DNA from: Candidatus Woesearchaeota archaeon
GTDB lineage: Archaea > Nanobdellota > Nanobdellia > Woesearchaeales > DSVV01
DNA: 64,000 bases
NCBI GenBank assembly: GCA_018661705.1
Contig: JABJHR010000009.1
Coordinates: 29,746 to 93,745 of the forward strand
Direction: 5' to 3'
Each line of letters starts with the position of its first letter. Within the stretch, counting starts at the first letter, position 1. A program made the position numbers and the translations under genes. This document shows, piece by piece, positions 1,667 to 50,045 of the stretch. The notes beneath the pieces are model-generated. The model saw nothing but the letters and a program-made list of their open reading frames with translations. It was not told where the DNA came from and did no database searches.

Positions 1667-1692
1667 ATATTCTTTTGATTAGTTATAAAAAT

Positions 1693-1819
1693 AAGTTTTG
1701 AGTAATGAGTTCTGAGTCATGAGTGGGTTATCAGTTAGTAGTTATGAGTATTGTTATATTTTCTCATTACTAATTTACTCAAAACCAACTCATTACCCAT
1801 AACTCAAATCCCATAACCC
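1693..1819. repeat. R-family AGT/ACT hairpin repeat, copy R1
   Basis: AGT-rich arm (gagtaatgagttctgagtcatgagtgggttatcagttagtagttatgagta), short loop, ACT-rich complementary arm. 47/51 nt identical to copy R4. Begins 27 nt after the ribD stop. Confidence 0.8.
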
Positions 1820-4624: not shown

Positions 4625-6643
4625 TTTCTTAATATCATACAATTTCTTTGCAGTCATTGCAATATGTTCGCCACTAACTTCAAACTTCTTAACTAATTCC
4701 CATGATTCTCCTGATTCGCCGAATCTATCATCAACACCAACCATGTCCATAATACAATTATGACCATAATCTTTGATTGATTCAAGAATTACTGCTGCTA
4801 CTTTATTACCCATCCCACCTTTTTGATGTTCTTCTGCTGTTACTATAATTCCTGTTTCTTTTGCAGCGTTTTCAATTGCTTTATTATCTAAAGGTTTAAT
4901 GGTATGTAAGTTAAGGATTCTTGTTTCTATGTTAAATTCTTTTTTCAGAATCCATGCAGCTCTCATTGCTTCTGGCACCATAGGACCACAAGCTGCAATT
5001 GTAAGATCTTCTTTTTCATCTGTATAGTCTGATGCAAGTTTATGTTCAAAGGCTTTTGCGAAATCTGCATTTTCTCCTTTAAATCTAATAACATTTGCTT
5101 TTCCAAATACAAATGGTGTTTCTGCGTTTGTAACAATTGGTGTTGCTTCTCTTGCAAACCTAATATATTTTGGTCCAACAACCTCAAATAAGAATGCTTC
5201 TGTTGCTTTTTTTGTTTCTACACTATCACACGGAACACTTACATGCATATTTGGTAAACCACCAACCATATACAATTCTTCTAAACTTTGATGTGTTGCA
5301 CCGTCTGGTCCAACTGAAACACCACCATGTGCTCCTGCAACTAAAACATTAAGGTTACCATAACAAACAGTTGTTCTTAATTGATCTGCATTTCTTGCAC
5401 TTGCAAATACACCATAAGTTCCAATTACTGGAATCTTACCTTCTTTTGCCAAACCAGCAGCAACACATGTACCATCTTGTTCAGAAATACCAATGCTTAA
5501 AAATCGATTTTTTCTTTCCGGATGATTTTTGTAAAACATGTCTATTAAAATAGATCCTGAAATATCTAGACCAAGGCAAACAATTCTTTCATCGTCTCCT
5601 TTTTCATCTAATGCTTCACCAAAACCTTTTCTTGTTGGTTTCATCTCTGATTTCATTGTTTCCTGAGAATTCCACCAATAGTTTTGTGAAAATTTTGGTT
5701 GTGCTTGTTCTAGTTCATCTAAAACTTTCTTATGATAATCCTCTGCTGTTTTCTTCATTTCTTCAATTGGTAATTTATCAATTACTCCTAATTCAGTTAA
5801 TGCTTTTGTTAGCTCTTCTCCACAAGGAGCTTTGCCGTGCCAACCTGCTTGATTTTCCATGAATGAAACTCCTTTACCTTTTACAGTTTCAAAAATAATT
5901 ACTGTAGGTGCGGTAGTTCTTTCAGAATTTTCATTTGCTTCCTTAAATGCTCTAAGAACATCATCCATATCATGACCATCTGCTTTTATTACATTCCAAC
6001 CAAATGATTTGTAACGTTCAGCTAATGGAAAAACATTTTTGATATCTTCTACTTTCCCGTCTATTTGTAGATGGTTTTCATCAAGAATACCAATTAAATT
6101 ATTCAATTTATGATGTGAAGCAGTCATAACAGCTTCCCAAATCTGTCCTTCTTGTTGTTCACCATCTCCCATGATACAAAAAACTTTGTAATCTTTTTTA
6201 TCTAACCTTGCTCTTAATGCAGAGCCACATGCTAAGCTTAAACCTTGGCCTAAACTTCCAGTGCTAAATTCTACACCATTTAATTTGTGCCAATCAGGAT
6301 GTCCTTGATATGGTGATCCTAATTTTCTTAATCTTGCAACATCTTTCACATCAAAATAACCAGAATAACCTAAACTAACATATAATGCAGGTGCTTTATG
6401 TCCGGCACTCCATACAACCCTATCCCTATCATCCCATTTATAATTTTTAGGATCATGCTTTAGAATTTTCAAATACAATGCAGCACAAACATCCATCATA
6501 GACAATGTACCACCACTATGTCCACTTTTTGCAGCACATAACGAAATTAGATTATAACCCCGCATCATACTAGCTGCTTGTTTTAATTCATCTGTAGAAT
6601 ATTCCTTAACTGTTTCTCCTGTTTCTGAGTTTACTATTGGCAT
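4616..6643 (-). CDS. tkt: transketolase (fused N- and C-terminal halves)
   Basis: 675 aa. ThDP-binding GHSGGTLS and GDGEQQEGQIWEA motifs, plus pyrimidine-binding and C-terminal domains. Confidence 0.9.
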   Translation of the reverse strand: MPIVNSETGETVKEYSTDELKQAASMMRGYNLISLCAAKSGHSGGTLSMMDVCAALYLKILKHDPKNYKWDDRDRVVWSAGHKAPALYVSLGYSGYFDVKDVARLRKLGSPYQGHPDWHKLNGVEFSTGSLGQGLSLACGSALRARLDKKDYKVFCIMGDGEQQEGQIWEAVMTASHHKLNNLIGILDENHLQIDGKVEDIKNVFPLAERYKSFGWNVIKADGHDMDDVLRAFKEANENSERTTAPTVIIFETVKGKGVSFMENQAGWHGKAPCGEELTKALTELGVIDKLPIEEMKKTAEDYHKKVLDELEQAQPKFSQNYWWNSQETMKSEMKPTRKGFGEALDEKGDDERIVCLGLDISGSILIDMFYKNHPERKNRFLSIGISEQDGTCVAAGLAKEGKIPVIGTYGVFASARNADQLRTTVCYGNLNVLVAGAHGGVSVGPDGATHQSLEELYMVGGLPNMHVSVPCDSVETKKATEAFLFEVVGPKYIRFAREATPIVTNAETPFVFGKANVIRFKGENADFAKAFEHKLASDYTDEKEDLTIAACGPMVPEAMRAAWILKKEFNIETRILNLHTIKPLDNKAIENAAKETGIIVTAEEHQKGGMGNKVAAVILESIKDYGHNCIMDMVGVDDRFGESGESWELVKKFEVSGEHIAMTAKKLYDIKKSK

Positions 6644-8235: not shown

Positions 8236-8295
8236 TATTTATATATTAATAATTCTCTTATTTAAAAATATTGTCCAAAATAAAGATTAATACTA

Positions 8296-8397
8296 GTGAA
8301 AAACAATAACATGGCCAGACGAAGCGAAGCTAAGTAGGATTTTTTCGAGCATCGCGAGAAAAAGTCCGTCTGTGCCATGAATGTTGTTGTTTTTTAC
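8296..8397 (+). repeat. Y-family three-way-junction element, copy A
   Basis: Core GGCCAGACGA-[AGC GAA GCT]-AAGTA-[GGATTTTT..AAAAAGTCC]-GTCTGTGCC inside AT-rich inverted flanks. Lies between divergent genes, upstream of the ham1 TATA. Confidence 0.7.
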
Positions 8398-8464
8398 TTT
8401 TACAACATCAACAAAGACTAAAATTACCTAAAAATATTAAAAGACTCATACTTTTCAAACAAAG

Positions 8465-9792: not shown

Positions 9793-10416
9793 TTAATTTT
9801 TAGTACCGAAATAGAAAAACTTATCGATACTTACGTCGTTACTTTCATATCCGCCTGTTCTTGGGTTATTACCCTCTTCAGCAGATCTTACTTGGTGATG
9901 TGGTTTGTTTTCTGGCTCTCGAACTTCTTGCACCGGATTCAAAGTAGTCTGCGCCCGTTCAATAGGGTGGGAGGGGTGCATCTCTTGTACAACAGGCTGT
10001 TGCGCCTCAACATTCACTGCTGTTTTTGATTCCATTTGTGCAAGTTGTTCTTGTAAATATGAAAATTTAATTTCTAAGCCCTTAATTGTTGCATTAAGAT
10101 TACTTATTTCTTGACCAAACATGTCACAAAACTTTTGAAGAATTGCTTCTGTTTGAGTTCTTGATAAAACATCAGTAGAACTTGCCTTTTGTTTTGTTTC
10201 TAAGATCATTTTTTGGCCATTACTTGAATGAACAACTTCCCATTCTTGTTTTTCATTAATTTTTAGACCCTCTAAATAATCTGTTTCTTGTTTCCCATTA
10301 ATTTCTCTTGCAAGATTTGCCGCATCCATTCTATTAGCTGCTAATCCATGCTTGTTTAGAGTACTTGCTAAACTATTCACTTTCTTTAATTTTGCAATAT
10401 TAATTACGTCTCCCAT
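9793..10416 (-). CDS. hypothetical protein (coiled-coil centre)
   Basis: 207-aa ORF with an ATG start. No motif recognised. Confidence 0.45.
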   Translation of the reverse strand: MGDVINIAKLKKVNSLASTLNKHGLAANRMDAANLAREINGKQETDYLEGLKINEKQEWEVVHSSNGQKMILETKQKASSTDVLSRTQTEAILQKFCDMFGQEISNLNATIKGLEIKFSYLQEQLAQMESKTAVNVEAQQPVVQEMHPSHPIERAQTTLNPVQEVREPENKPHHQVRSAEEGNNPRTGGYESNDVSIDKFFYFGTKN

Positions 10417-10621
10417 GTTATCACCCGTTTTTTTGTCTTTGTGTTACAGCCCAAATAATCAGTAAAAGCTATTAGTATATCTTTTCGTATATTGGTGTTG
10501 ATTATTAGCTCTTAGGTTATATATAAATGTTTCGATTTTTGAGGCGTTATAGAGAAATATTGAGCATTTAAGGCCCAAATTGGTCAAAAAATAGAGAAAA
10601 TTAGAAAATAGAATAACAAAG

Positions 10622-10629
10622 TTTAAATA
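10622..10629 (+). promoter_or_regulatory. TATA-like box for the PHP-domain gene
   Basis: TTTAAATA lies 25-32 nt upstream of ATG 10654. Confidence 0.35.
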
Positions 10630-10653
10630 GATAAGTACTACTCCTTAGTGATT

Positions 10654-12045
10654 ATGGTCGAAATAATTACAAAACACAATATACATACACACACTAATTT
10701 ATCAGATGGATCATTATCACCAAACAACTTAGTAAAGAGTGCAAGTAGAGAAGGATTGTATTTAATAGGAATATGTGATCATGCATTTACATCAAAAATA
10801 AAACCAAGAGATCAAGTAACTGAAAGACTTGAAATTTATTTAGAAGAATTGAGAAGAATACAAACATCACACCCAGATATAATTATTAAAGCCGGACTAG
10901 AAATTGATTCATCAACAGGATATGGAACTGCTCCCGCAGACCTACCATTTGATACACTTAATCAATTTGATTATCTTCTTTTTGAATATGTTCATACCCA
11001 ATCTGAGAGTTGGGGCAATGTTGGATTTAGAGATATTTCTGAACTCGTTGCCATTAGAAATAAACTTCAAATACCAGTTGGCTTAGCACATAATGATTTA
11101 CAAAAAAATTTTAAAGGAAAAGAAGAAGAGCTTGCAAAAATATTAGCAGATAATAATATTTTTGTCGAAATATGTGACGGAGAAAGAGGAAGAAATAACA
11201 GAGACGGCATGTATTATTTTGAACATTTCTCAGCATTCTTGTTAGAACAATTAGCTAAATATGATGTAAGGGTTGCAATTGGAACAGATACGCACAAAAG
11301 TGGAAATAGTTTAGCAGAAACAGAAAAAGCAACAGAATTTATCAAAAAACACGGATTAAAATATCCTGAATTAATTGAAGAAGATAGAATATTAGAAGTA
11401 AATTTAGCAAGACTTTATGATTTTGAGAAAAATCCTGAAAATTTTAATGAAAAAGAAATGAGAGATTTAAAAGAATATTTTGAAATCGCAATAAGTGTTT
11501 TTAGAGAAAGAAAGGACACAAGTTCTGTGGAAAGCCATTACGATAATATAAAAGACGGATTAGATGCCACAATTACTGGTAAAAATGAGAGAATTGCAAA
11601 AGAATTAAAACCATTAAATGACTTAAAGGACAGAGTTGCTGAACTTGAAGCAGAATTAGCAGAAAAAGAAACAGCATATCAAACAGGAGTAGCAAAATAT
11701 GAAAAAAAATTAGGGGAAATTCAAGCACAGATTGCAGAATTCAAAACATACCTTGAAAGAGGAACTATTCCAGATCCAAGAAGAATTGCAATAAGAGCAA
11801 ATCTCCCAGGAAATAAAAACACATCTTTCAACAGAGTATTTTTAGAAACATATATGGGAGAAGATTTATCAGCTATTCCTGACGACCAATTACCAAAAGT
11901 CACTGAGTTAGGAACATTTAAGACATTAGATGGAAAACAAGTTATTGCTTATTCTATTTTTGATCAAGTTGTTCATGTAAAAAATGGAAAAGAGAAAAAA
12001 GGAAGAATGGATGTAGAGATATTATATTTACAAGAACAAAAATAG
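10654..12045 (+). CDS. PHP-domain metal-dependent phosphoesterase fused to a coiled coil and an uncharacterised C-terminal domain
   Basis: N-terminus HTHTNLSDGS...GICDH is PHP/histidinol-phosphatase-like. The C-terminal roughly 95 aa (PDPRRIAIR..FNRVFLETY.G.DLSAIPD..LPKVTEL) recur in the next gene. Confidence 0.7.
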   Translation: MVEIITKHNIHTHTNLSDGSLSPNNLVKSASREGLYLIGICDHAFTSKIKPRDQVTERLEIYLEELRRIQTSHPDIIIKAGLEIDSSTGYGTAPADLPFDTLNQFDYLLFEYVHTQSESWGNVGFRDISELVAIRNKLQIPVGLAHNDLQKNFKGKEEELAKILADNNIFVEICDGERGRNNRDGMYYFEHFSAFLLEQLAKYDVRVAIGTDTHKSGNSLAETEKATEFIKKHGLKYPELIEEDRILEVNLARLYDFEKNPENFNEKEMRDLKEYFEIAISVFRERKDTSSVESHYDNIKDGLDATITGKNERIAKELKPLNDLKDRVAELEAELAEKETAYQTGVAKYEKKLGEIQAQIAEFKTYLERGTIPDPRRIAIRANLPGNKNTSFNRVFLETYMGEDLSAIPDDQLPKVTELGTFKTLDGKQVIAYSIFDQVVHVKNGKEKKGRMDVEILYLQEQK

Positions 12046-12074
12046 ATTGATACTACTCTTTATTAAGGATTAAA

Positions 12075-12659
12075 ATGGACGATGAAATGATGTTAATTGT
12101 AATGTACCTTAGAGACATTCCTGAACTACCAGAAGATTATGATGTTATAAAAGAATTAGATACATCAATAGCAGAAGATGTTAACAGAGCAATGGAGCTC
12201 AATAATGAGTTAAAATCAGAAGACGATCCAGTACCAGAAGGATTAAGAGAAATGGTAGAACATATGAGCGAATATTCTGCAGGTTGTGGTAAAGAAAAAA
12301 TGTTATATAAAGCCGCAATCCTACAAAGAGATGAAGAAATTGAAAGATTAAAAGATGAACTATCTGCTTATAAAGAAGGGCCAGTTCCTGATCCAAGAAG
12401 AATTGCAATAAGAATAGAACCACCAAAAACACTTTTTGGGAGTTTAGAACCTGCTTTTAACAGAGTTTTTTTAGAAACATATTTTGGAGGAGATTTATCA
12501 GCAATCCCTGACCATGAATTACCAAAAGTTACTGAACTTGAAACTTTAAAAACCCCAGAGGGTGAAAAAGTTTCAGTATACGAAATTAGAGATAAAGTTG
12601 CTCAAGAAAGAGATGGAAAAGAAACTGGAATTCAGATATTATATTTAAAGAAATCATAA
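12075..12659 (+). CDS. hypothetical protein sharing the C-terminal domain of the PHP protein
   Basis: 194 aa. Acidic N-terminus, coiled coil, then PVPDPRRIAIR..FNRVFLETYFGGDLSAIPDHELPKVTEL. AAGGA 6 nt before the ATG suggests co-transcription. Confidence 0.6.
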   Translation: MDDEMMLIVMYLRDIPELPEDYDVIKELDTSIAEDVNRAMELNNELKSEDDPVPEGLREMVEHMSEYSAGCGKEKMLYKAAILQRDEEIERLKDELSAYKEGPVPDPRRIAIRIEPPKTLFGSLEPAFNRVFLETYFGGDLSAIPDHELPKVTELETLKTPEGEKVSVYEIRDKVAQERDGKETGIQILYLKKS

Positions 12660-12715
12660 ACTTTTTAATATAAAATTCTAAAATTATTTAAACCCTAAAT
12701 GTAATCATTGTTATT

Positions 12716-13321
12716 ATGAAACTAATATCACAAGGAGCAGAAGCTAAAATATATTTAACTAAAAATAAAATAGTTAAAGATAGAATTAGAAAAGATTACA
12801 GAATTAAAGAAATAGATGATAAACTAAGAGGATTTAGAACAAGAAGAGAAGCAAAGATATTAGATAAGTTACATAAGTTTGGTTTTGTTCCAAAAGTATT
12901 ACATAATGATAAAAAAGAAAAGCTAACTATTGAATATATTGAAGGTCCAAAAGTTAGAGATATTCTTGATAAGTTATTTATTAAAGATAAAAAGAAATGT
13001 TTTGCAATTTGTAAAGATCTTGGAAAGAAAATAAGATTAATGCATGATAATAATATTGTTCATGGTGATTTAACCACAAGTAATATGATGTTATTAGACA
13101 ACAAAGTTTATTTTATTGATTTTGGTCTTAGCCAAGTTTCAACAAAAAATGAAGATAAAGCAGTTGATTTACATTTATTAAAACAAGCATTAGAAAGCAA
13201 ACACTATAAAATATGGGAAGCATGCTTTAAAGTAATTGCAAAAGCATATGGCCATAAAGAAATTCTAAATAGATTAGAGAAAGTTGAATCTAGAGGAAAG
13301 TATAAAGGAAAAGGAAGTTAA
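12716..13321 (+). CDS. bud32: Kae1-associated serine/threonine kinase Bud32
   Basis: 201 aa. GAEAKIY glycine-loop equivalent, HGDLTTSNMM catalytic loop, IDFGLS. Confidence 0.85.
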   Translation: MKLISQGAEAKIYLTKNKIVKDRIRKDYRIKEIDDKLRGFRTRREAKILDKLHKFGFVPKVLHNDKKEKLTIEYIEGPKVRDILDKLFIKDKKKCFAICKDLGKKIRLMHDNNIVHGDLTTSNMMLLDNKVYFIDFGLSQVSTKNEDKAVDLHLLKQALESKHYKIWEACFKVIAKAYGHKEILNRLEKVESRGKYKGKGS

Positions 13322-13362
13322 ACAATTAGATTTAAATTTGTCAAATACTAAAAACAGAATAA

Positions 13363-14085
13363 CTAATTTTTAAAATCGTCGTGGTCTTCATCCCTTTCTT
13401 TAGGTGGTTCAACAAACCAATCTTTGTCAATTGGAGTTTTAAGTTCATTAATATTTTTTAGTAGATTAATTTCAACAAAATCTGATTTTGGTTTGTCTTC
13501 TATTAATTCAATTTTAACTACAGATACTGGTTCTGGAGCAGGTTCCTTCTTTGGCAAAGGTGGAGAATGTGGATCTACTTGAATATCTTGTAATCTTTTT
13601 AGAACTGCAAAATGTGAATAGTCTGTTAATCTATAAGTTCTATCACCCTTAGATGTAAACCCATTTCTTGGTGGATTGTATCCCGTTGAACCATCATAAT
13701 TTGGATGTTCATGAGAAATTGTTACTTTACCAACGCCTTCCCCAACCAAAAAACCAGCAATTTGTTCTTCTTCAGATTTATACAACAAAACAACATCACC
13801 AACATCTGCTTCAATTCTTTTATTATCTAATGGTTGAAGTTCTTCCCAACCCATAAGAGCGTAATACTCATACTTTTTTAAAGCATATTTACGATCGCCC
13901 TGAATAAATCTATCAATAAGTGTTGTTGTACGATTTTCTTTTTGATGAGAAATACGTATCTTATCAGGCATTCGTTTATCTACAAAGCCAGCAACAGATG
14001 GACTATATCCTTTTCTATAGCTTTCTTTGTATAAAGCTACAACATCATCAACATTTACTCCCTTCATAGTATCTTGTATACCCAT
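13363..14085 (-). CDS. hypothetical protein
   Basis: The track ORF starts at TTG 14097. The first ATG is 14085. No motif recognised. Confidence 0.45.
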   Translation of the reverse strand: MGIQDTMKGVNVDDVVALYKESYRKGYSPSVAGFVDKRMPDKIRISHQKENRTTTLIDRFIQGDRKYALKKYEYYALMGWEELQPLDNKRIEADVGDVVLLYKSEEEQIAGFLVGEGVGKVTISHEHPNYDGSTGYNPPRNGFTSKGDRTYRLTDYSHFAVLKRLQDIQVDPHSPPLPKKEPAPEPVSVVKIELIEDKPKSDFVEINLLKNINELKTPIDKDWFVEPPKERDEDHDDFKN

Positions 14086-14190
14086 AGTAATCCCCAATAC
14101 AGTAAAAGAACACAGGTTTATTTATAAGGTTTTTGCTCATTTACTACTTAAAAGAGGACACTTAATTAACCCATTTATGAGTACCATAAA

Positions 14191-14198
14191 CTATATAA
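14191..14198 (+). promoter_or_regulatory. TATA box for ribK
   Basis: CTATATAA lies 24-31 nt upstream of ATG 14222. Confidence 0.4.
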
Positions 14199-14221
14199 GT
14201 AACCATTTCTCACAGAAATAC

Positions 14222-14911
14222 ATGGAAAAAGAGAGTAAATTAGAAGGAAACATCCAACACATACCTTTATTGTTATATTTATCACAAAAGTTAGGATTAA
14301 GTAAAACAGATATTCTTAGTACAACTGATATTGCTAAAGATATGAATTTTTCCCAGCAGACCGCATCTAGAAAAATGCAGGAATTAGAAGAACTAGGATT
14401 TATTAAAAAACAATACTCACCAAATGGTTTAATGATTGGGTTAACTGATAAAGCAACTGAAGTGTTAAAAGCAAATTATTCACATCTAAAAAATATATTT
14501 GAAGAATCAAAATCAAAAAAACCAGTAAAAATTCAAGGTGCAATTCTTTCTGGGATTGGTGAAGGCAAGTTTTATGTGCAAATTAAGAATTATAATGAAG
14601 CATTTACAAAACTATTAGGAGAAAAACCATTTCCAGGAACATTAAATGTAATTTTTGACAAAGACGAATTTAGAGAATTAATTCTAAAAAAAGAATTAGT
14701 AAGAATTGAAGGGTTTAAAACAAAAGAAAGAACTTTTGGTTATATTAATTGCTATAAAATTACAATCCAAAAAAATAATAAAAAAGTTTTAGGATTTATC
14801 ACAATACCTGAAAGAACTTCTCATCCAGAACATATTGCAGAAATCATATCACCAACATATTTACGTAGAGAATTTAATCTAAAAGATAATGATAAGATCG
14901 AGATAGTTTAG
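14222..14911 (+). CDS. ribK: CTP-dependent riboflavin kinase with N-terminal winged-helix domain (RbkR-like architecture)
   Basis: wHTH (TDIAKDMNFSQQTASRKMQELEELGFIKK) plus archaeal RibK domain (GEGKFYV..PFPGTLN). The track ORF extends upstream to 14027. ATG 14222 fits the TATA spacing. Confidence 0.8.
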   Translation: MEKESKLEGNIQHIPLLLYLSQKLGLSKTDILSTTDIAKDMNFSQQTASRKMQELEELGFIKKQYSPNGLMIGLTDKATEVLKANYSHLKNIFEESKSKKPVKIQGAILSGIGEGKFYVQIKNYNEAFTKLLGEKPFPGTLNVIFDKDEFRELILKKELVRIEGFKTKERTFGYINCYKITIQKNNKKVLGFITIPERTSHPEHIAEIISPTYLRREFNLKDNDKIEIV

Positions 14912-14930
14912 ATTATTTTAATTAATAAAA

Positions 14931-15029
14931 GGAAATTCAACAACCTGGCCAGATGAGGCGAAGCTGAATAGGATTTTTTGAGCAGAGCGAAAAAAGTCCG
15001 TCTGTGCCATAGTTGTTGTTGAATTCTCC
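14931..15029 (+). repeat. Y-family element, copy B
   Basis: GGCCAGATGA-[GGC GAA GCT]-GAATA-[GGATTTTTT..AAAAAAGTCC]-GTCTGTGCC with flanks GGAAATTCAACAAC / GTTGTTGAATTCTCC. Lies in the ribK-ribC spacer. Confidence 0.75.
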
Positions 15030-15048
15030 GTCAAAAGATTTACAAAAA

Positions 15049-15531
15049 ATGACACACACAATAGGGATTGCAGATACTATGTTTAGTAGAATTGACATGC
15101 ATGAGATAGCTAAAAAAACAATTGAAGACTCTGAAGAATCAATTAAGATTGAAAGATATACAGTTCCAGGAGTTAAAGATCTGCCATTAGCTTGCAAAAA
15201 GTTATTAGAAGAACATAATTGTGATATTTGTTTAGCACTTGGAATGCCAGGTCCTGAAAAAATAGATAAAACTTGTGCACATGAAGCATCACAAGGATTA
15301 ATCTCAACGCAATTAATGACTAACAAACATATTTTAGAAGTTTTTATACATCTCGATGAAGGAAATAATAAAGAAGGAGTTATCGACAAAAAGAAACTTC
15401 AAGAAATAACTCAAAACCGAGTTTATGATCACACAATAAATGCAATTGCATTATTAAAAAGTAAAACAGCATTATCAAATAAAGCTGGCCAAGGAATCAG
15501 ACAAGGCCATGATAATGTAGGATCATTATAA
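15049..15531 (+). CDS. ribC: archaeal-type riboflavin synthase
   Basis: IGIADTMFSRIDM..TVPGVKDLPLACKKLLEE..ALGMPG..CAHEAS.GL...QLMTNKHI matches the Methanocaldococcus-type enzyme. Start at ATG 15049. Confidence 0.85.
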   Translation: MTHTIGIADTMFSRIDMHEIAKKTIEDSEESIKIERYTVPGVKDLPLACKKLLEEHNCDICLALGMPGPEKIDKTCAHEASQGLISTQLMTNKHILEVFIHLDEGNNKEGVIDKKKLQEITQNRVYDHTINAIALLKSKTALSNKAGQGIRQGHDNVGSL

Positions 15532-15533
15532 TT

Positions 15534-15624
15534 AAAAAAATAAAACAATATGGCCAGATGAGGCGAAGCCGAATAGGACTTTGGAACAAAGTCCGTCTGT
15601 GCCGTTATTGTTGTTTTATTTTTC
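15534..15624 (+). repeat. Y-family element, copy C
   Basis: GGCCAGATGA-[GGC GAA GCC]-GAATA-[GGACTTTG GAA CAAAGTCC]-GTCTGTGCC with flanks AAAAAAATAAAACAATA / TTATTGTTGTTTTATTTTT. Lies in the ribC-ribH spacer. Confidence 0.75.
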
Positions 15625-15648
15625 ATATACAAATCAAAAAAGTAACAA

Positions 15649-15653
15649 GGAGG
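15649..15653 (+). promoter_or_regulatory. Shine-Dalgarno-like site for ribH
   Basis: GGAGG lies 9 nt upstream of GTG 15663. Confidence 0.5.
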
Positions 15654-15662
15654 AAAATTAAA

Positions 15663-16079
15663 GTGACAAACGAAAAAATTGGAATTGTAGTATCAGACTT
15701 TAACGCTGAAATAACACATATAATGGAAAAGTTAGCAAATGAACATGTAAACTTTTTAGGTGGGCAAGTTGTAAAAACAATTCATGTCCCAGGTGCATTT
15801 GACATGCCATTAGCAGTGAAAAAACTAGTAGAAGATGCAAATGTAGATGGAGTTGTAACATTAGGAGTTGTTATTGAAGGAGACACTGATCATGATACTA
15901 TCGTTGCACAAAACGCAGCAAGAAAAATAACAGATCTTAGCGTTGGTTTTAATAAACCAGTTTCATTAGGAATTTCAGGTCCTAAAATGAGTCGGGCAGA
16001 TGCAGTTAAAAGACTAGATGGCTACGCAAAAAGATCAGTAGAAAGTTGTTTTAAAATGTTAAAAGCAATGAAAGCATAA
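15663..16079 (+). CDS. ribH: 6,7-dimethyl-8-ribityllumazine synthase
   Basis: KIGIVVSDFN..VPGAFDMP typical of RibH. GTG start after GGAGG. The upstream part of track ORF 15558.. merely translates the Y element. Confidence 0.85.
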   Translation: MTNEKIGIVVSDFNAEITHIMEKLANEHVNFLGGQVVKTIHVPGAFDMPLAVKKLVEDANVDGVVTLGVVIEGDTDHDTIVAQNAARKITDLSVGFNKPVSLGISGPKMSRADAVKRLDGYAKRSVESCFKMLKAMKA

Positions 16080-16103
16080 TTAGTTTATAAGTTTAATAAA
16101 AAA

Positions 16104-16724
16104 ATGCAACAAATAATCTCAGAACTAAAATCTGGCAATTTCGTTATTGTTACAGACCACAAAAACAGAGAAGATGAAGCAGACTTAATCATGGCTGCAG
16201 AGTTTATTACTCCAGATAAGATTGCATTCCTATTAGATCATTGTAGTGGAATTATTTGCGTTCCAATGAGCAAGAAGAGAATCCAAAAGATTGGAATTCC
16301 AATAATTGAAAATATTACTGAAATTATAAACAAGGGAGAGAAAACCTGTCCATTTACAGTTGCAGTTGATGCAAAAGAATGTCATACAGGTATTAGTGCA
16401 TATGATCGTTTTTTAACAATCAAAAAACTCTGCGATGATAATGCAACAATTAGTGATTTCTCACTTCCTGGCCATATGTTTCCTTTATCTGCACATCCAA
16501 ATGGTTTAGCAGAAAGAAAAGGACATACAGAAGCAGGTGTTGAATTAATGAAAATTGCAGGATTAAAAGAAGTTTCAGTTATTTGTGAATTAATGAACAG
16601 TTCTGCAAATACAAATGATAAAGAAAAATTAGGAACAGTAATGAAAGCACAAGATATAAAAGAATTCTCTGAAAAACACAACCTAAAAGTAATAAGTATA
16701 GAAGATATAACACAAAAAAATTAA
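16104..16724 (+). CDS. ribB: 3,4-dihydroxy-2-butanone 4-phosphate synthase
   Basis: REDEADLIMAAE, PGHMFPL and GHTEAG motifs. Confidence 0.9.
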   Translation: MQQIISELKSGNFVIVTDHKNREDEADLIMAAEFITPDKIAFLLDHCSGIICVPMSKKRIQKIGIPIIENITEIINKGEKTCPFTVAVDAKECHTGISAYDRFLTIKKLCDDNATISDFSLPGHMFPLSAHPNGLAERKGHTEAGVELMKIAGLKEVSVICELMNSSANTNDKEKLGTVMKAQDIKEFSEKHNLKVISIEDITQKN

Positions 16725-17614
16725 ATTAAATCAGCATTACCAACAAATTCCATTCTCTTTACTTCTATTGATATAGCAGGTTCATTTACACGGATATATC
16801 GAGGACATTCTGTGAATTCTAATTCATTAAGATCACAATATTTTTTTATCTCACTTTCTGCTTTTTTAGTTTTTGCTTCAACAACTACAACAATTCCTCT
16901 TTTATCAGAATGAAATACATTAAGGCCCATTTCAATTAATTCTTTTTTCATTTGATTACAAGTTTCTTCTAAAAATATTAATCTTTCATGAGCTAATTTA
17001 ATTTTTCCTAATAATTGTTCTTCATCTAAATCTTTAGGACTAACTTTTTCATTGATCTTGTCTGCAGATTCAATTATTTCAATAACTTTTTTATCTTTTG
17101 CAGAGATAAACCCACCTTGTTTATTATCCACGACTTTCCACTTCCCAAAACTACAAAGAATAATATCTGCTAATTTGCCGTTACAAAGTTTGTCATCTCC
17201 AAAAGCATTTGTATCTTCTATTAAAAGAATATTATGTTTCTTACAAACATCAGAAATCCCTTTAAGATCTTGTTCTGCATAATACCCCGCATAGCTTGTA
17301 ATTAATAATGCAGTTTTCTTCTTAACTTTTTTACAAACTTTTTCTAACTCATCTAAGATAACTAAACCCTTATCTGTCTTCAATTCAATAATCCCTAACT
17401 TCATTTTCTTAGGATATTGTTTGTAAGTAATCCAACCACCTTGATCAGGAATAATAATTTGTTCATAACCTTCTTGTTTAAGATAATACATGGCTGCGTA
17501 AATTGCTTTATTTCCAGAATCTGTTAATTTAATATATTTATGATTAGTTTGTTTCTTAATCTCAGACAAGATTTCTTTCTGAGTTGGATTTATTATTTGA
17601 TTTCCAGCAACCAT
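16721..17614 (-). CDS. PLP-dependent transferase-like protein (fold type I; DegT/MJ0158-like)
   Basis: T.SGNKAI.., IEDTNAFG, CSFGKWK (candidate PLP lysine). ATG 17614 preferred over the track TTG at 17656. Confidence 0.45.
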   Translation of the reverse strand: MVAGNQIINPTQKEILSEIKKQTNHKYIKLTDSGNKAIYAAMYYLKQEGYEQIIIPDQGGWITYKQYPKKMKLGIIELKTDKGLVILDELEKVCKKVKKKTALLITSYAGYYAEQDLKGISDVCKKHNILLIEDTNAFGDDKLCNGKLADIILCSFGKWKVVDNKQGGFISAKDKKVIEIIESADKINEKVSPKDLDEEQLLGKIKLAHERLIFLEETCNQMKKELIEMGLNVFHSDKRGIVVVVEAKTKKAESEIKKYCDLNELEFTECPRYIRVNEPAISIEVKRMEFVGNADLI

Positions 17615-17743
17615 AAAAACAAAAAAGACTAATTGGTATAAATACTTTTTGTGCAAAAATCACCACAACCAGGTAATACATCTGCACCAATTAGTTAATT
17701 CTTTTCCATTATATTTAAAAACCCATCTGCATTTCCCTGGCTA

Positions 17744-18205
17744 ATGGGGGACGAGACTAGTATACAAATAATAAAGAGAAAACCAGCTGCTTCTGGAGAA
17801 GTTATTAGGAATGGTGAAACTAATATAGGCATGGTTATTACTGATTTAGAAATACAATATGGAGAATTGAAAAAAGAAGCAGAAGATGAAAGACTTAAAA
17901 CAGTTGCTTATTGGTTTTCACTTGGTGAAAAAGAAAAAGAGGGAAGATATAACCAACTTAAGAAACATACAAGTGATGAAGAACTTGATCAAGCCGGTGT
18001 TTTACCACCATATAATTTTTTCTCAGAACAACTAGGACCTGCAATAAGAGAATTTGTTAAAGAAGATCCTGTTGAATTTAAAAGAATAGCAGAACTTGGT
18101 TTTGAAGTAATTAAAGAGATGTATAAAATTCCTGTTAGTCAAGGAGCAACAAAAAGATTTATGATTGGCAAGGTCTTTGATCAATATTTTAGATTCCTTA
18201 TATGA
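17744..18205 (+). CDS. hypothetical protein
   Basis: 153-aa ORF. A TATA-like attatatttaaaa lies about 25 nt upstream. Confidence 0.45.
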   Translation: MGDETSIQIIKRKPAASGEVIRNGETNIGMVITDLEIQYGELKKEAEDERLKTVAYWFSLGEKEKEGRYNQLKKHTSDEELDQAGVLPPYNFFSEQLGPAIREFVKEDPVEFKRIAELGFEVIKEMYKIPVSQGATKRFMIGKVFDQYFRFLI

Positions 18206-18650
18206 AGATGATCTAAATAGATATGACGCAGAAACAGAAACAATGAAAACAGCAGCAAAAGAAAGAGAAGCAGAAAGAGAGAGAAAAAGAGAAGAAGAAG
18301 ATAAAAAATATCAATTATTAATAGCAAAAGAAAAAGAGGGTTCATCAGAGGAACAACCAGAAACAGAATTATCAGAGGAAGAAGCGCTTGAAAATGATCG
18401 TGCAATGGAACGTGCATTTGAAGATGCAATGGATTTTGGAATGGATGATCATTATCAAGAAATGCAACAATTAAGAGCAATAGATGATAGAGTACGTAAC
18501 AGAAATCAATTTCGTAGTGCTAGAACTGCTCCAGTATTACAATCATTTGGAACTGTTGACTTTATGGAATCATTAGAAGGACATACCAGAGGCGGCCACA
18601 GTGGTTATGTTACTGGACTAAGGTTTGATGTAGAAAAGACAGAAAAATAA
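18165..18650 (+). CDS. hypothetical acidic protein (start uncertain: TTG 18165 or ATG 18243)
   Basis: 161-aa ORF overlapping the previous ORF by 41 nt in the +1 frame. Glu/Asp/Lys-rich. Confidence 0.4.
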   Translation: MARSLINILDSLYEDDLNRYDAETETMKTAAKEREAERERKREEEDKKYQLLIAKEKEGSSEEQPETELSEEEALENDRAMERAFEDAMDFGMDDHYQEMQQLRAIDDRVRNRNQFRSARTAPVLQSFGTVDFMESLEGHTRGGHSGYVTGLRFDVEKTEK

Positions 18651-18710
18651 ATAAGTTTAATTTTCTTTCTAATAATAACATTTATAATAAAAGAATGACT
18701 AAATAGTTTC

Positions 18711-19319
18711 ATGTTAAAAATAACACCCTATCTTGGAATAATTATACTAATTGTATCAATAGGGGGATTATGGTTTCCCAAATTAGGTTATTTCTTGTTA
18801 ATAGTATTTGCTACATTATTAGCAATTGCTCCTTTTAGAGGAAGATGGTTTTGCGGCAATCTTTGCCCAAGAGGAAGCTTTAATGATTTTTGGTTAGGTA
18901 AAATAACTTTCAAGAAAAATATCCCTAAATTCTTTAGAAGTTTATGGTTGAGAATTCCTGTGTTTATTGCAATGATGGGATTTATGTTCTTCAGATTAAT
19001 TACAGTAGAAAAACTAGTTGACAAAATAGGGATGGTTTTTGTAATAATGTGCATTGTCACAACATTAATTGCAATTTTGTTTGGAATTTCTATTGCTCCA
19101 AGAACCTGGTGTTCATTTTGTCCTATGGGAACTGTACAAAACTGGTTAGGTAAAGGAAAATACACAATTAAGTTTGATAAATCTAAATGTATTGATTGTG
19201 GCATATGCAATAAAGTCTGCCCTATGCAATTAACAGTAAATCAAATAACACATAATCCTGATTGTATCAAATGTGGAAGATGTATATCTGCCTGTCCAAA
19301 GAAAGCATTAAAATTCTAA
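18711..19319 (+). CDS. membrane-bound 4Fe-4S ferredoxin-domain protein
   Basis: Several TM helices. CIDCGICNKVCP and CIKCGRCISACP cluster motifs. Confidence 0.7.
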   Translation: MLKITPYLGIIILIVSIGGLWFPKLGYFLLIVFATLLAIAPFRGRWFCGNLCPRGSFNDFWLGKITFKKNIPKFFRSLWLRIPVFIAMMGFMFFRLITVEKLVDKIGMVFVIMCIVTTLIAILFGISIAPRTWCSFCPMGTVQNWLGKGKYTIKFDKSKCIDCGICNKVCPMQLTVNQITHNPDCIKCGRCISACPKKALKF

Positions 19320-19347
19320 TCAGTTAGTAGAAAAAATTAAAATAATT

Positions 19348-19821
19348 TTAACATACAAATTCTTTCACATCGTCACTACAATAAGGACATCTTGCTGGTG
19401 CTTGTTTAACTGTATTATAAACAAATTCATATTTACATTTAGGGCATTTATATTTTACTTTTTCATCATCTAATCTTACTGCTCTAACTGCTTTTTCTTT
19501 TTCCTTTTCTCGTTCTATTAACTTTTTCCTGTATTCTTTTTCAATATCTACATCTTCTTCATTGGTTGTAGGGCTATTAGTAACGCCAATCTCTCCTAAA
19601 GAAGCATCTGATCTAAGAACTTCAATATTTTCTTCATTATTTGCATCAGCAACAACTAATTGTTCTTCTGTTTGTTTTTCAACATTTTTCTTTTGTTTAG
19701 ATTTTCTATCTCTAATACACATAGGGCATGCCATCATCTTATAATGATGATCTAGAACAAACTGAGAAGCTTCTACTGAACTACCACAGATCTTACATGT
19801 TACTTTAACTTCTTCTACCAT
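19348..19821 (-). CDS. zinc-ribbon protein
   Basis: CKICG..CPMC and CPKC..CPYC pairs separated by a charged linker. Confidence 0.5.
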   Translation of the reverse strand: MVEEVKVTCKICGSSVEASQFVLDHHYKMMACPMCIRDRKSKQKKNVEKQTEEQLVVADANNEENIEVLRSDASLGEIGVTNSPTTNEEDVDIEKEYRKKLIEREKEKEKAVRAVRLDDEKVKYKCPKCKYEFVYNTVKQAPARCPYCSDDVKEFVC

Positions 19822-19927
19822 TAAAACCTATAAGAAATTCTTATATTTAAATATAATTGTGATGTAATGGATAAGTATTATACAAACCAGCATTAACTTT
19901 ATAAATAACAACCCCTCAAAACACCCT

Positions 19928-20482
19928 ATGATCATCACATTATCAGGAAATGTTGCATCTGGTAAATCCACTATTGGGGATGCATTAGCTGAAAAATTAG
20001 GATTTAAGAGATATAGTTCTGGAAATTTTATGCGAGCAATGGCTAAGAAAAAAGGTGTAACTTTACAAAAATTAGGCAAAGAAGCAGAAAAAACCATCAT
20101 GATAGATAAAGAAATAGATGATATGATCATTAAACTCAGCAAAAAAGAAGATAATTTTATTATTGATTCAAGATTAGCATGGTATTTTATTCCACATAGT
20201 TTTAAAATTTACTTACATGTTGGGAAAAAAGAACAAGTAAGAAGGATGAAATTAGATTTAAGTAATAAAAAAAGAGGGGAAGAAGAAATTAAGAATGACA
20301 AAGACATTCTTGAAAAGATTAAAGAAAGAGAAGAAAGTGAAAAAGAGAGATACATGAAATATTATGGTATTGATTATCATCAAAAGAAATTCTATGATTT
20401 ATGGCTAAAAACAGATGAATTAACTATTGATACTTGCGCAGAAGAAATAAAAAAAGTTCTTAAGAAACAAAAATTACTTTAA
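19928..20482 (+). CDS. cmk: archaeal cytidylate kinase
   Basis: P-loop SGNVASGKST. Overall similarity to archaeal CMP kinases. Confidence 0.7.
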   Translation: MIITLSGNVASGKSTIGDALAEKLGFKRYSSGNFMRAMAKKKGVTLQKLGKEAEKTIMIDKEIDDMIIKLSKKEDNFIIDSRLAWYFIPHSFKIYLHVGKKEQVRRMKLDLSNKKRGEEEIKNDKDILEKIKEREESEKERYMKYYGIDYHQKKFYDLWLKTDELTIDTCAEEIKKVLKKQKLL

Positions 20483-21500: not shown

Positions 21501-21629
21501 AGAGTTATGAGTAATGAGTTCTGAGTCTTGAGTTGGTTATCAGTAAGTAGTTATAAGTACAGCTGTATTTTCTCAAAACTAATATACCCAAAACCAGCCC
21601 ATTACTACTTACCCAAAACCCATCACTAC
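21501..21629. repeat. R-family hairpin repeat, copy R4
   Basis: 21509-21559 matches R1 1700-1750 at 47/51 nt. Ends 7 nt from the stop of the 21636 gene. Confidence 0.8.
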
Positions 21630-31818: not shown

Positions 31819-32688
31819 TTAAGATGATGGTAAGAATTCCTTATTACAAGCAAAGTATCTTTTATAAACATACTTCAAGAACTCCCATTCTGTTTTCTTA
31901 TCTGCTTGGTTCAAAGCATGATAATAAGACTGTCTTTTTTTATATTCAATAATTAAAATAGGATAATCATATTTATGTAAGATAAAATTCATAATTAATC
32001 TTGTTATTCTTCCATTGCCGTCTCCAAAAGGATGAATCTTAACAAATCTATAGTGTGCTTTTGCAGCTAACTCTACTGGATGCAATTTCTTTTTTTCTTT
32101 ATTATACCATTTAATGAAATCTTTCATTAGTTGAGGAATATCTTGCCAATCTGGACACAAATAATTTCCAACCTTAACTAAATAATCCCTATAAATTCCA
32201 GCTATGTCTGACTTTGACTCTTTGAAAATGTCTAAGTGCCATTTTTTAATTAAATTAATTGAAAGATCAGAAAATTTGTTGTTCATAATATCATTAAAAA
32301 CCGTTGTATGATTCATTGATTCCATAATATCTCCAAATGGTTTAGCAGGAGTAATTTTATCATGAATTAATCTCCTTGTTTCATCCAAAGTAATAGTAGA
32401 TCCTTCAATTGCATTTGTATTGTATGTAAAATCAACTGCTTTCTCTTCAATTAACTTTTTTTTGACAGACTCAGGAATCTTTTTCCAATTTTTCAAGTAG
32501 TTTTTCTTGATTAAATCAAATTTCTTAAAAATGGTCTGATTATTAATTTGACTTAGAAAATCATCTTTGATTTTTTCAATATTTTTAGGAATGGTTTTGC
32601 CAAGATAAAGGTCTTTTGTTTTTACTATATCGCTGTCTTTGTATGTGTGGTGTAAATAATAGTAATTATTTCTTGTTATTATTTCCAT
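31819..32688 (-). CDS. fic: Fic-domain protein (AMPylase/adenylyltransferase family)
   Basis: Canonical Fic motif HPFGDGNGRITRL. Confidence 0.85.
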   Translation of the reverse strand: MEIITRNNYYYLHHTYKDSDIVKTKDLYLGKTIPKNIEKIKDDFLSQINNQTIFKKFDLIKKNYLKNWKKIPESVKKKLIEEKAVDFTYNTNAIEGSTITLDETRRLIHDKITPAKPFGDIMESMNHTTVFNDIMNNKFSDLSINLIKKWHLDIFKESKSDIAGIYRDYLVKVGNYLCPDWQDIPQLMKDFIKWYNKEKKKLHPVELAAKAHYRFVKIHPFGDGNGRITRLIMNFILHKYDYPILIIEYKKRQSYYHALNQADKKTEWEFLKYVYKRYFACNKEFLPSS

Positions 32689-32760: not shown

Positions 32761-33681
32761 CTATTCGTCTTCCTTCCTAAAAGCTCGACTTATCTTTTTA
32801 CTCCAGAAACTAGGTAAAGGATTATCAACAAATCCAGCAAATTCATCAGAATAAATATAAGTGATTCCTTTAACGCCTTTGTATTTTTTAAATCTATCTC
32901 CAACGTCTTCGTAAATCTCTTTGATCTTTTTTCGTTCAAAATCTTTTTGCAATAGAGATGATGTTTTTAACACTAAATAATCTGCCTGCCTAATTGCATT
33001 AATTTCTAAATTAGCAGAGTTTTGTGAGATAAAAATAATACTAATACTTTTATGCCTTGCAATAAGCATTAATTCACTTAATAATTTGTTTGGTTCTGCC
33101 ATTGATCTTCTTGAACTAAATAAAATACCCCCTTCATCTATCAAAACAAAAGAATTATTTTTTAATTCATTAATACTTTCAACAACATCTATCCAAATTG
33201 GCATATCTTCTTCCTTAAAACCTAATGCAAAACATTTCTTTTTTGTTTTTGCATAGATATTTTCTAATAGTTTAACAGCAATTGCTGTTTTTCCAGAACC
33301 TCTTGCCCCTAAAATAATTCCAATTGTAGAATCATTCTTACTTACTTTCTTTTCAAACTTATCAAAGCTTCCTGAATCGTGATGTATTAAATTAAATTTT
33401 TGATATTCTGCTGGAACTTCACTTCTTTGTTTTTCAATCTTCTTTTTTTCAACATATTTAGTTGTCTTATCAGTTGCTTTATAGAATAATCTAACAAACC
33501 AAATAGCTCCTAAAATAATTCCTTTAACAATCCAATAAACACTAAATCCTAAATAATAAAATAGATAGTAAATCCCAGCAAACAAGAAATAAACCCATCC
33601 TAATTTCTTCTTTAATTTAGTAAAGAATGATTTAGATGTTCCAGATTTCCTCTTTTTAGCTGATTTACTCTTTTTTGCCAT
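32761..33681 (-). CDS. membrane-anchored P-loop NTPase (Zot-like)
   Basis: Basic N-terminus and two TM helices. Walker A GARGSGKT, Walker B FVLIDEGG, and ARHKSISIIFISQ resembling the Zot/pI hRH..D...tQ motif. Confidence 0.65.
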   Translation of the reverse strand: MAKKSKSAKKRKSGTSKSFFTKLKKKLGWVYFLFAGIYYLFYYLGFSVYWIVKGIILGAIWFVRLFYKATDKTTKYVEKKKIEKQRSEVPAEYQKFNLIHHDSGSFDKFEKKVSKNDSTIGIILGARGSGKTAIAVKLLENIYAKTKKKCFALGFKEEDMPIWIDVVESINELKNNSFVLIDEGGILFSSRRSMAEPNKLLSELMLIARHKSISIIFISQNSANLEINAIRQADYLVLKTSSLLQKDFERKKIKEIYEDVGDRFKKYKGVKGITYIYSDEFAGFVDNPLPSFWSKKISRAFRKEDE

Positions 33682-36094: not shown

Positions 36095-36105
36095 AAAAAA
36101 ATCAT

Positions 36106-36301
36106 AAAAATCCGTCATAAGTGTCACACCCCAACCTAAAGGTAGGGGTATGTCGTAACACTCACCTTTATTGACGAATTTTTAGGATGCAAATTGAGCA
36201 AAGCTCAATTGCACACAAAATCCATGATTTTGTTGTGCCAAAAATTTCACCATTAATGATGGAGTGTTAAACCCCATACCAAAATTCTTGATGAAATTTT
36301 T
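36106..36301. other. composite hairpin element Z between convergent genes
   Basis: AAAAATCCGTCATAA/TTATTGACGAATTTTT encloses CCCCAACC-TAAA-GGTAGGGG. Then TGCAAATTGAGC-AAA-GCTCAATTGCA, ACAAAATC/GATTTTGT, and AAAAATTTCA/TGAAATTTTT. Confidence 0.5.
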
Positions 36302-36313
36302 GTGCATAAAAAA

Positions 36314-38924: not shown

Positions 38925-39011
38925 AATAATCACCAAATAGCTAATAGAATAAGCTTTTATATAAAGATATTGATAACTTTGAATAAGGTTGAAGTAAAGA
39001 AGAGAAGAAAA

Positions 39012-40532: not shown

Positions 40533-40533
40533 T

Positions 40534-41058: not shown

Positions 41059-41093
41059 TTTTCTTTTCAATTTTATTTTTCTAATTTTAATTT

Positions 41094-41190: not shown

Positions 41191-41256
41191 GCTATCATAA
41201 TTTATTAAAAAGCTGTTGTTGTTGTTATTTCTTCTGTTACTATCATAAAAAAATAA

Positions 41257-42758: not shown

Positions 42759-42803
42759 AAAGTAAAGAAACTAAAATGAGTTTTTAAAGGTTTGGTTAGG
42801 TTT

Positions 42804-50043: not shown

Positions 50044-50045
50044 AT

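Follow-up and report, generated by a model that had tools for sequence, protein, structure and literature searches.

The 64,000-nt stretch of DNA analyzed here (hereafter the window) belongs to a genome assembly of a Candidatus Woesearchaeota archaeon (GCA_018661705.1, contig JABJHR010000009.1, positions 29,746 to 93,745 of the forward strand). With a GC content of about 30%, it is archaeal in character and codes, among others, for ribosomal protein S8e, a CTP-dependent riboflavin kinase, an archaeal-type riboflavin synthase and PdxS/PdxT. Scattered through it, at a density of roughly one per 10 kb, are six copies of an element of about 90–120 nt that consists of a three-way junction enclosed by AT-rich inverted repeats. 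A first-pass annotation of these copies had offered two alternatives, a new structured RNA or a structured MITE (a miniature transposable element with inverted repeats). We found that the family lies between the two: it is a dispersed, insertion-polymorphic repeat with a structure under constraint, which has multiplied in the intergenic DNA of a Woesearchaeota (DPANN) lineage.

Copy A (8291-8398, plus strand) is located between a CNNM/CorC gene on the minus strand and a divergent Ham1 gene on the plus strand. Copies B (14925-15030, plus) and C (15530-15625, plus; the focal copy) occupy the riboflavin kinase-ribC and ribC-ribH spacers, respectively. Copy D (41092-41188, plus) lies between pdxS and pdxT, antisense to both, and copy E (45299-45402, minus) is found 92 nt upstream of the S8e gene, which is also on the minus strand. 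Finally, copy F (47367-47487, plus) represents a divergent subfamily, subfamily 3, in which a long GC-rich stem, GGGUUGCCCCCUUCGGGGUG, without tandem G.A pairs, replaces the first hairpin of the junction (P2). The same subtype is present at L071:7883-7999 and L067:6130-6251, where L-numbers are labels of relative loci that we fetched for comparison.

Following a suggestion of the first-pass annotation, we built a covariance model (R1) from 50 family members, which recovered the six copies in the window and more in related metagenome-assembled genomes (MAGs). Run unfiltered over the whole window, R1 matched exactly six copies, all of them at the positions originally listed, with scores of 95.5 bits for D, 92.0 for C (E 2.9e-21), 85.3 for A, 83.5 for E and 83.3 for B. 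The divergent copy F scored 26.1 bits (E 4.5e-4), and the best match that was not a copy reached 13 bits. Antisense strands of the copies scored 10–12 bits versus 83–96 bits for the sense strands of A–E. Two conserved blocks, GGCCAGNNGANNNG and AGTCCGTCTGTGCC, occurred 7 and 6 times against 1.9 and 0.66 expected, counts that none of 100 shuffles reached. On the sense strand each copy was predicted to fold into a long AT-rich stem with a three-way junction (z between -4.6 and -9.4; minimum free energy (MFE) z of -6.4 for copy C, and -2.7 for copy F), while the reverse strands folded more weakly.

To find relatives we scanned one genome per prokaryotic species with the pattern GGCCAGNNGA...AGGA...CCGTCTGTGCC. 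Out of 74 loci, 44 were AT-rich archaeal loci with a flanking inverted repeat. About 40 copies came from a single MAG, 'Candidatus Woesearchaeota archaeon SI047_bin3', and the other hosts were Woesearchaeota Bin_274 and FT1_346, Nanoarchaeota Modern_marine.mb.116 and two MAGs labeled Methanosarcinales. Some 30 matches in high-GC bacteria had neither arms nor hairpins and were therefore taken as chance. Applied to the archaeal loci, R1 detected 63 copies, and the roughly 300 kb of SI047_bin3 sequence that we fetched carried about 60. No family match was found among viral contigs. The window and SI047_bin3 are different genomes, with syntenic stretches that are 70–85% identical; L013 aligns with window positions 40170-43488, L019 with 14706-20415 and L027 with 10045-14699.

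The element is built around an outer stem (P1) of 12–20 AT-rich base pairs, with arms that mostly read ...AAAAUAACAAC / GUUGUUAUUUU... Its inner part, GGC-CAGR paired with UCUG-U-GCC and containing a bulged U, leads into a three-way junction whose connecting strands are 0 nt (P1-P2), 'UA' (P2-P3) and 'G' (P3-P1). P2 has the form Y-GA-[stem-loop]-GA-R, that is, a small hairpin lengthened by a tandem of two G.A pairs and then a Y:R pair of Watson-Crick type, and P3 has the form GGAY...RUCC, with covarying distal pairs. In copy C (all parts on the plus strand), the A-rich 5' arm AAAAATAAAACAATAT (15536-15551) is paired in the MFE fold with the T-rich 3' arm (15604-15623, delimited from the fold and the alignment). 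The 5' strand of inner P1, GGC-CAGA (15552-15558), pairs with GCC at 15601-15603 and UCUG at 15596-15599. The extended P2 (15559-15573) reads U(Y)-GA-[GGC GAA GCC]-GA-A(R) and is followed by the P2-P3 junction strand 'UA' (15574-15575), which is invariant in the 50-copy alignment and reads CA in copy F. The P3 hairpin (15576-15594) is GGACUUUG-GAA-CAAAGUCC, with a conserved GGA/UCC base. The segment 15595-15603 then comprises the junction 'G', UCUG, the conserved bulged U and GCC, and the AGTCCGTCTGTGCC block spans 15590-15603. The consensus proposed from the six copies was correct on the alignment, and so were the hairpin variants assigned to them: the P2 stem is AGC/GCU in A, GGC/GCU in B, GGC/GCC in C and D and GCC/GGC in E, where the P2 loop is longer, and the P3 loops vary as described. 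Across 50 copies the 3-bp P2 stem occurs as GGC/GCC, GCC/GGC, GUC/GAC, GAC/GUC, ACC/GGU and AGC/GCU. Loops are mostly G-N-A triloops closed by C:G, such as GCGAAGC, whose mini-hairpin in DNA is notably stable, but in some copies the P3 loop is G(CUUG)C, a typical RNA tetraloop. DNA folding parameters predict the same fold as RNA parameters, and the features of the element fit RNA and single-stranded DNA alike.

Constraint on this fold was evident from covariation. We used an alignment of 50 copies (A3) and one of 63 copies found by the covariance model (A4), 16 of which fall outside the search pattern and thus served as a test of the positions fixed in it. In A3, pairing is kept in 96.9% of cells, and double changes are seen at 21 of 32 pairs; shuffled controls paired at 81%, with 0 of 500 reaching the observed value, and slid partners at 43–52%. 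In A4 the corresponding figures are 97.6% and 27 of 32. Most copies are paralogs from two related genomes and fall into subfamilies, so that cell counts exaggerate how many events were independent. Across the family, double changes are found at each of the 12 outer P1 pairs, and the P2 stem pairs have 7–33 each. Inner P1 covaries from A-U to G-C as well, CAGR/UCUG becoming CGGR/UCCG in 9 of the model-found copies and CUGG/UCCG in one. Two further subfamilies have other inner stems (GCGCU/AGCGC, GGGCU/AGCCC or GCACAU/AUGUGC) or a large GC-rich P2, the latter in window copy F and two others. Both the three-way-junction fold within AT-rich inverted repeats and the compensatory changes in its two hairpins, first suggested from six copies, were thus supported by folding scores and by very strong covariation in about 70. 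One contact in the junction had been missed. In A3 the Y of CAG-R-Y-GA invariably has its partner in the R of GA-R-UA (CG 39, UA 11), and in A4 the pairing is never broken either (CG 44, UA 17, GC 1, UG 1). This corrects the thermodynamic fold, which paired Y with the G of GUCUG; P2 is therefore a hairpin extended by tandem G.A pairs and a Watson-Crick pair. Moreover, G.U occupies the junction-proximal position of P1 in 45 of 63 copies, and U.G the fourth position of P3 in 33 of 61 (A4). Such G.U or G.T pairs become A.C mismatches on the complementary strand, which argues for one functional strand: compensatory change maintains the fold on one strand only.

A fold of this kind raises the question of known RNA classes. 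Searching the whole window against Rfam 15 gave no match at gathering score, in line with the novelty proposed in the first-pass annotation, and permissive scans of 14800-15800, L026 and L067 returned nothing overlapping any copy. No tRNA was found in the window. One likeness is to the hammerhead ribozyme, and a new self-cleaving ribozyme carried by a repeat, as in retrozymes and satellite repeats, would explain several features: the three-way junction has invariant nucleotides, a small hairpin is flanked by GA...GA with the tandem G.A pairs stacking on P2 as in hammerhead domain 2, and a minority subfamily (subfamily 2) reads ...CUGAUGA-[P2]-GAA..-[P3]-GUGA... The details point elsewhere. Where a hammerhead has junction strands CUGANGA / GAA / H, this element has 0 / UA / G, and the main family reads CAGRYGA-[P2]-GARUA-[P3]-G-UCUG in place of a CUGANGA core, with A at the U4 position and G at that of A6 in most copies. 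The Y and R equivalent to N7 and A14 pair with each other in the proportions given above, and there is neither an A15.1:U16.1 pair nor a C17-type cleavage site. Rfam models of hammerhead, twister-sister, hatchet, pistol, hairpin and other ribozymes were silent even at E<=5-10. We therefore consider a ribozyme very improbable. In a kink-turn, tandem G.A/A.G pairs come after a bulge of three nucleotides and sit between a canonical helix and a non-canonical one. An L7Ae-type kink-turn was rejected for this element, whose tandem G.A pairs have Watson-Crick neighbors on either side (Y:R and P2) and whose 5' strand, as read from the alignment, lacks a 3-nt bulge; the C/D-box reading of 'AUGA...GA' in the main family fell with it for want of the same bulge. 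An integron attC site was rejected too, since the neighbors are syntenic housekeeping genes and not cassettes, and on inspection the arms do not fit GTTRRRY.

We then looked at the placement of copies relative to genes, using neighbors from crude open reading frame (ORF) calling. Nearly all non-redundant copies (67 of 69) are intergenic. Among the 57 copies with two called neighbors, both genes lie on the strand of the copy in 16 cases and both on the opposite strand in 15, while 14 arrangements are of divergent type and 12 of convergent type. In the window, five of six copies do share the strand of the downstream gene, as first noted; family-wide 30 do and 27 do not (n = 57), and with orientation random the five-of-six pattern is a small-sample effect. 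Base profiles of the 80 nt upstream were equally AT-rich on the sense and antisense sides, with no positioned TATA box or TFB-recognition element. The TATA boxes that the first-pass annotation placed downstream of copies A and E are putative: TATA-like AT-rich strings lie between these copies and the neighbor's ATG, but such strings are ubiquitous at 30% GC. Strands of the copies alternate along three contigs (54–104 kb), and a replication-strand bias as for the IS200/IS605 insertion sequences (IS) was accordingly rejected, though this evidence is weak, as origins were not located. Overall, copy orientation is independent of the neighboring genes, and the idea of a structured RNA linked to the downstream gene was abandoned on account of the random strand, the absence of an oriented promoter signal and a flipped core at an orthologous site (see below).

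This placement also bears on a host-beneficial role in cis, as a bidirectional terminator, an insulator or an mRNA-stabilizing hairpin spread by recombination. In this view a strong hairpin would precede a U-tract on either strand. Whichever strand is read, an A-rich arm comes first, then the GC core and a T-rich arm, with T5-7 often at its end, the copies are strictly intergenic in nearly every case, and roles of this type have been proposed for repetitive extragenic palindromic (REP) sequences and for enterobacterial repetitive intergenic consensus (ERIC) sequences (PMC3733652). Against such a role, copies sit inside operons (rfk-ribC-ribH and pdxS-pdxT) and, no less often than between convergent genes (14 vs 12), between divergent genes, and in such places terminators would be needless or harmful. 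Nor does a terminator require a conserved three-way junction, tandem G.A pairs or strand-specific G.U pairs. We regard this explanation as improbable.

Having related genomes at hand, we compared orthologous sites, recovering the rib operon of relatives by a protein-guided metagenome scan with RibC. Two SI047-like contigs, at 84% RibC identity to the window, carry copies in both rib-operon spacers. In relatives at 70–71% RibC identity, the kinase-ribC spacer of L078 is 17 nt long and the ribC-ribH spacer of L077 is 5 nt long, and with filters off no family member was found within 14–20 kb in relatives of this type. Since these orthologous sites are empty, the copies are insertions, those in operon spacers included. 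As to the operon itself, riboflavin genes in the window are found at 509-1666 and 14027-16724 and encode a RibD-like protein, the CTP-dependent kinase fused to a helix-turn-helix domain, RibC, RibH and RibB; the kinase-ribC-ribH spacers are those invaded by copies B and C. Once inserted, copies persist at orthologous sites across about 20% nucleotide divergence, yet their cores do not stay fixed. At site C, the unusual arms (AAAAUAAAACAA) are common to the orthologs in L019, L075 and L076, and in L019 and L076 their P3 is swapped for that of a different family type. At site B, similar arms (AAAUUCAACAAC) in the same three loci enclose a core that belongs to a different subtype and lies on the other strand. 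Cores are thus homogenized, swapped and flipped between copies.

Composite arrangements and debris of the kind left by mobile repeats were also found. The 3' arm of copy D together with about 10 nt of flank is tandemly duplicated (41170-41248, plus strand; units at about 41170-41200 and 41215-41248) and single in L013, and the B copy of L019 has its 3' arm and flank likewise duplicated. L007 contains three tandem repeats of a unit comprising the end of P3, the 3' strand, the 3' arm and 22 nt of flank, and L067 contains a solo 3' half. Reading by eye around the GAAAAUAACAAC subfamily, we regularly found, ahead of its members, a 5' fragment from another copy, stopping right after the 'GA' at the P1-P2 side of the junction, i.e. 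at the P2 position, which suggests nesting. Often just downstream of GAAAAUAACAAC copies we also noticed a 61-nt unit in which A/T tracts accompany a small GC hairpin, GAGCCUGCCGGCCUG; it resembles a terminator on the minus strand, and four such units stand in tandem at L021 6190-6420 (also L027 at about 2800-2920, L022 and L038). Back-to-back pairs of different subfamilies in opposite orientation, 1–6 nt apart, occur at L026 (790-894, minus; 901-1003, plus) and L067 (6013-6128, minus; 6130-6251, plus) and recall the head-to-head dimers described for REPs. 'Empty' AACAAC...GTTGTT hairpins were no commoner than chance; hence the arms travel with the element, and insertion of cores into pre-existing host hairpins was rejected.

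The same comparisons speak to whether the copies could be genes, that is, a multi-copy family of independently expressed small structured RNAs (for instance the RNA of a DPANN-specific ribonucleoprotein or a protein sponge) whose junction and tandem G.A pairs form a protein-binding platform. Strand-specific covariation with G.U pairs, invariant junction nucleotides and helix sequences, a D core that is 100% conserved against 77% coding identity and the retention of positions B, C and D since the split of the two species would all be expected of such genes, and TATA-like AT-rich strings lie upstream of many copies. On the other side stand the lack of a position-specific promoter signal on the sense relative to the antisense upstream side, the inverted core at orthologous site B, the existence of truncated, tandem and nested copies and the sites that are empty in relatives. 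In addition, the element offers no single-stranded variable 'guide', every variable part being a helix or a small loop; a set of dozens of near-identical genes would be out of the ordinary in a genome as small as that of a DPANN archaeon; and DNA parameters predict the same fold. Taken together, we consider an RNA gene family unlikely.

An ordinary cut-and-paste MITE, derived from an IS with a DDE transposase, was the other alternative proposed at the outset. The element is indeed short, non-coding, intergenic, bounded by inverted repeats, multi-copy and insertion-polymorphic. MITEs share conserved terminal inverted repeats with a parent IS. Here, instead, the arm ends vary and the center is conserved: the outermost 5–8 bp differ by subfamily (GAAAAU.., AAAAAA.., AAAUCC.., AUUUUA..), only inner AACAAC/GUUGUU is common to subfamilies, and in other MAGs the arms are wholly different (GUGAUGAU, GACGACAAC, AUUCCUCC) around a conserved center. 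No target-site duplication was visible at the window copies, and the sequence available yielded neither a related IS nor a transposase. Core halves enclosing an ORF were likewise not found, orphan 5' and 3' halves being short debris. Finally, strand-specific G.U pairs, and with them the strand-specific structural constraint, are irrelevant to a transposase acting on double-stranded DNA. We consider an ordinary MITE very improbable.

With these classes set aside, the family bears its closest resemblance to REP sequences and REPINs, the hairpins formed by paired REPs. In bacteria, REP/REPIN stems change in a compensatory way and contain G-T pairs, and the elements are reiterated in tandem along with the DNA that flanks them (PMC3733652) and insert into or beside existing copies with a random extragenic distribution (PMC3116915). 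The archaeal family parallels them as extragenic hairpin repeats of about 100 nt, present in tens to hundreds per genome, randomly placed, with compensated hairpins, common G-T(U) pairs and coexisting subfamilies, with clusters arising by insertion into or beside copies and by tandem reiteration with flank, and with long persistence at orthologous sites (PMC3116915; PMC3733652). Short multi-copy extragenic palindromes with compensated hairpins, as REPs are described, are what we observed. The G/A-UAG directly 5' of P3 and the CGUC directly 3' of it recall the REP tags GTAG/CGTC; unlike the unpaired REP tag (PMC3733652), the first base of this GUAG is A in 11 of 50 copies and is base-paired, covarying with Y. 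Further differences concern the architecture and the enzyme. Two conserved REPs flank a variable spacer in a REPIN, whereas here an asymmetric center, with P2 different from P3, is conserved between variable arms. A REP doublet with hidden two-fold symmetry was rejected, as the similarity of the 5' half to the reverse-complemented 3' half did not exceed P1 pairing. No REP-associated tyrosine transposase (RAYT; a Y1 HUH enzyme) was found in the ORF sets specified below.

A second group of bacterial repeats shares other traits. ERIC (also called intergenic repeat units, IRU), BOX, RUP (repeat units in pneumococcus) and Correia elements (also called neisserial miniature insertion sequences, NEMIS) are intergenic imperfect palindromes of 100–150 nt that occur in either orientation and are co-transcribed with their neighbors. 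Their stem changes are often compensatory, and selection on a single-stranded fold has been suspected. They are bacterial and have conserved termini, Correia elements also having TA duplications. To our knowledge, the enzyme that mobilizes them is mostly unidentified, and we know of none among them with a conserved three-way junction and tandem G.A pairs. ERIC and NEMIS are both named in PMC3116915. None of these elements has sequence similarity to the archaeal family, which resembles a REPIN/ERIC-type 'selfish hairpin', a type so far unreported from archaea.

Gene-independent dispersal, insertion polymorphism combined with orthologous persistence, compensated subfamilies, and reiteration and nesting match the REP/REPIN/ERIC signature. 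For this reason we favor, with about even confidence, the reading that the family is a non-autonomous, REPIN/ERIC-like structured replicator, in which the junction would be the recognition module for a putative trans-acting factor on a single-stranded intermediate. On this model the element spreads, or has spread, as a selfish replicator through single-stranded DNA or RNA; the conserved junction would be recognized by an enzyme encoded elsewhere in the genome; and the long hairpin would keep the element compact and tolerated in spacers, including those of operons. As both strands read 'A-rich arm - core - T-rich arm', it may have a secondary action on transcripts, working as a hairpin/U-tract element whichever way it is transcribed. 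The comparison establishes resemblance to REP, REPIN and ERIC sequences, and not membership in any of them.

Several observations weigh against a replicator. By Pfam, no transposase, HUH/Y1 enzyme, reverse transcriptase or integrase was found in the 39 window ORFs or in 19 ORFs beside copies and clusters in other loci, and none was recognized by eye in the translations of ORFs between copies in L035 and L059; together these ORFs represent only a fraction of any genome. No target-site duplication was seen by eye at copies A–E, the relatives, at about 70% protein identity, being too diverged for exact borders. We obtained no signs of recent transposition, for example copies that are identical yet occupy non-orthologous sites within a population, or products of excision. 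The conserved center and variable arm ends are the reverse of the architecture of REPINs and MITEs. Many double changes are inherited within subfamilies, the copies being mostly from two related genomes. Furthermore, helices keep their sequence and not merely their pairing (GGC/GCC, CAG/CUG, GGA/UCC), and at site D the 53-nt core is identical to its L013 ortholog at 53 of 53 positions as opposed to 76.8% for flanking coding DNA. Sequence-kept helices and such extreme core conservation are also expected of a functional RNA or a protein-binding site, although homogenization and swapping of cores could alone explain the very high sequence conservation.

Besides the focal family, the window and its relatives hold other structured or unusual regions. 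A second, unrelated family of foldbacks, each about 130 nt long, rich in GAGU in the 5' half and in ACUC/ACCC in the 3' half and tolerant of G.U pairs on one strand, is located at 1689-1818 (plus), 21503-21626 (plus) and 49940-50048 (minus), recurs in L045 (3720-3844) and is also present in SI047_bin3. The spacer 36095-36313, between the convergent genes 35096-36094 (plus) and 36314-37555 (minus), contains three differing strong hairpins (36097-36192, about 36190-36232 and 36236-36309) with A-rich and T-rich arms around cores unrelated to the focal family. Next to copy E, the ORF-free segment 45405-45640 contains a patch of unusually high GC content, in which C-rich tracts accompany a GGCUCUCC...GGAGAGCC inverted repeat; this patch had no Rfam match at E<=1 and may be a small RNA. 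Two tandem full-length serpin genes (36314-37555 and 37632-38936, both minus; Pfam E 1e-122 and 1e-126) are unusual cargo for a small DPANN genome, and their neighborhood also includes a gene for a Fic-domain protein (31819-32688) and one with weak similarity to Zot-like P-loop proteins (32761-33681). SI047_bin3 also harbors intron-containing tRNA genes (L026 4153-4246 and L067 1619-1726; Rfam tRNA scores of 55.5 and 44.1 bits) with insertions of 22–23 nt.

REPINs have been stated to be undetected in archaea (bioRxiv 10.1101/2021.07.10.451892), where IS200-type enzymes are the only Y1 transposases known (PMC6006769). Against this background, we put forward only tentatively, as a possibility short of probable, that the family is the first REPIN-like 'Darwinian replicator' population in archaea, based on a new single-strand motif: a previously undescribed three-way junction with 0/UA/G strands, a hairpin extended by tandem G.A pairs and a stem with a bulged U. 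This motif would then be the handle or the catalytic core for a mobilization or RNA-processing enzyme of DPANN archaea, and if so, finding the partner enzyme would define a new element-enzyme system. Structured interspersed repeats such as REP/REPIN, ERIC and BOX are a long-standing puzzle in bacteria, and a comparable population in very small DPANN genomes, with a fold that is unusually well defined, offers a clean system in which to ask how such elements are recognized, whether their intermediate is RNA or single-stranded DNA, and whether streamlined symbiont genomes tolerate or exploit them. At a practical level, the R1 model can be used for annotation: these elements inflate apparent 'intergenic' space, split operons and may break MAG assemblies.

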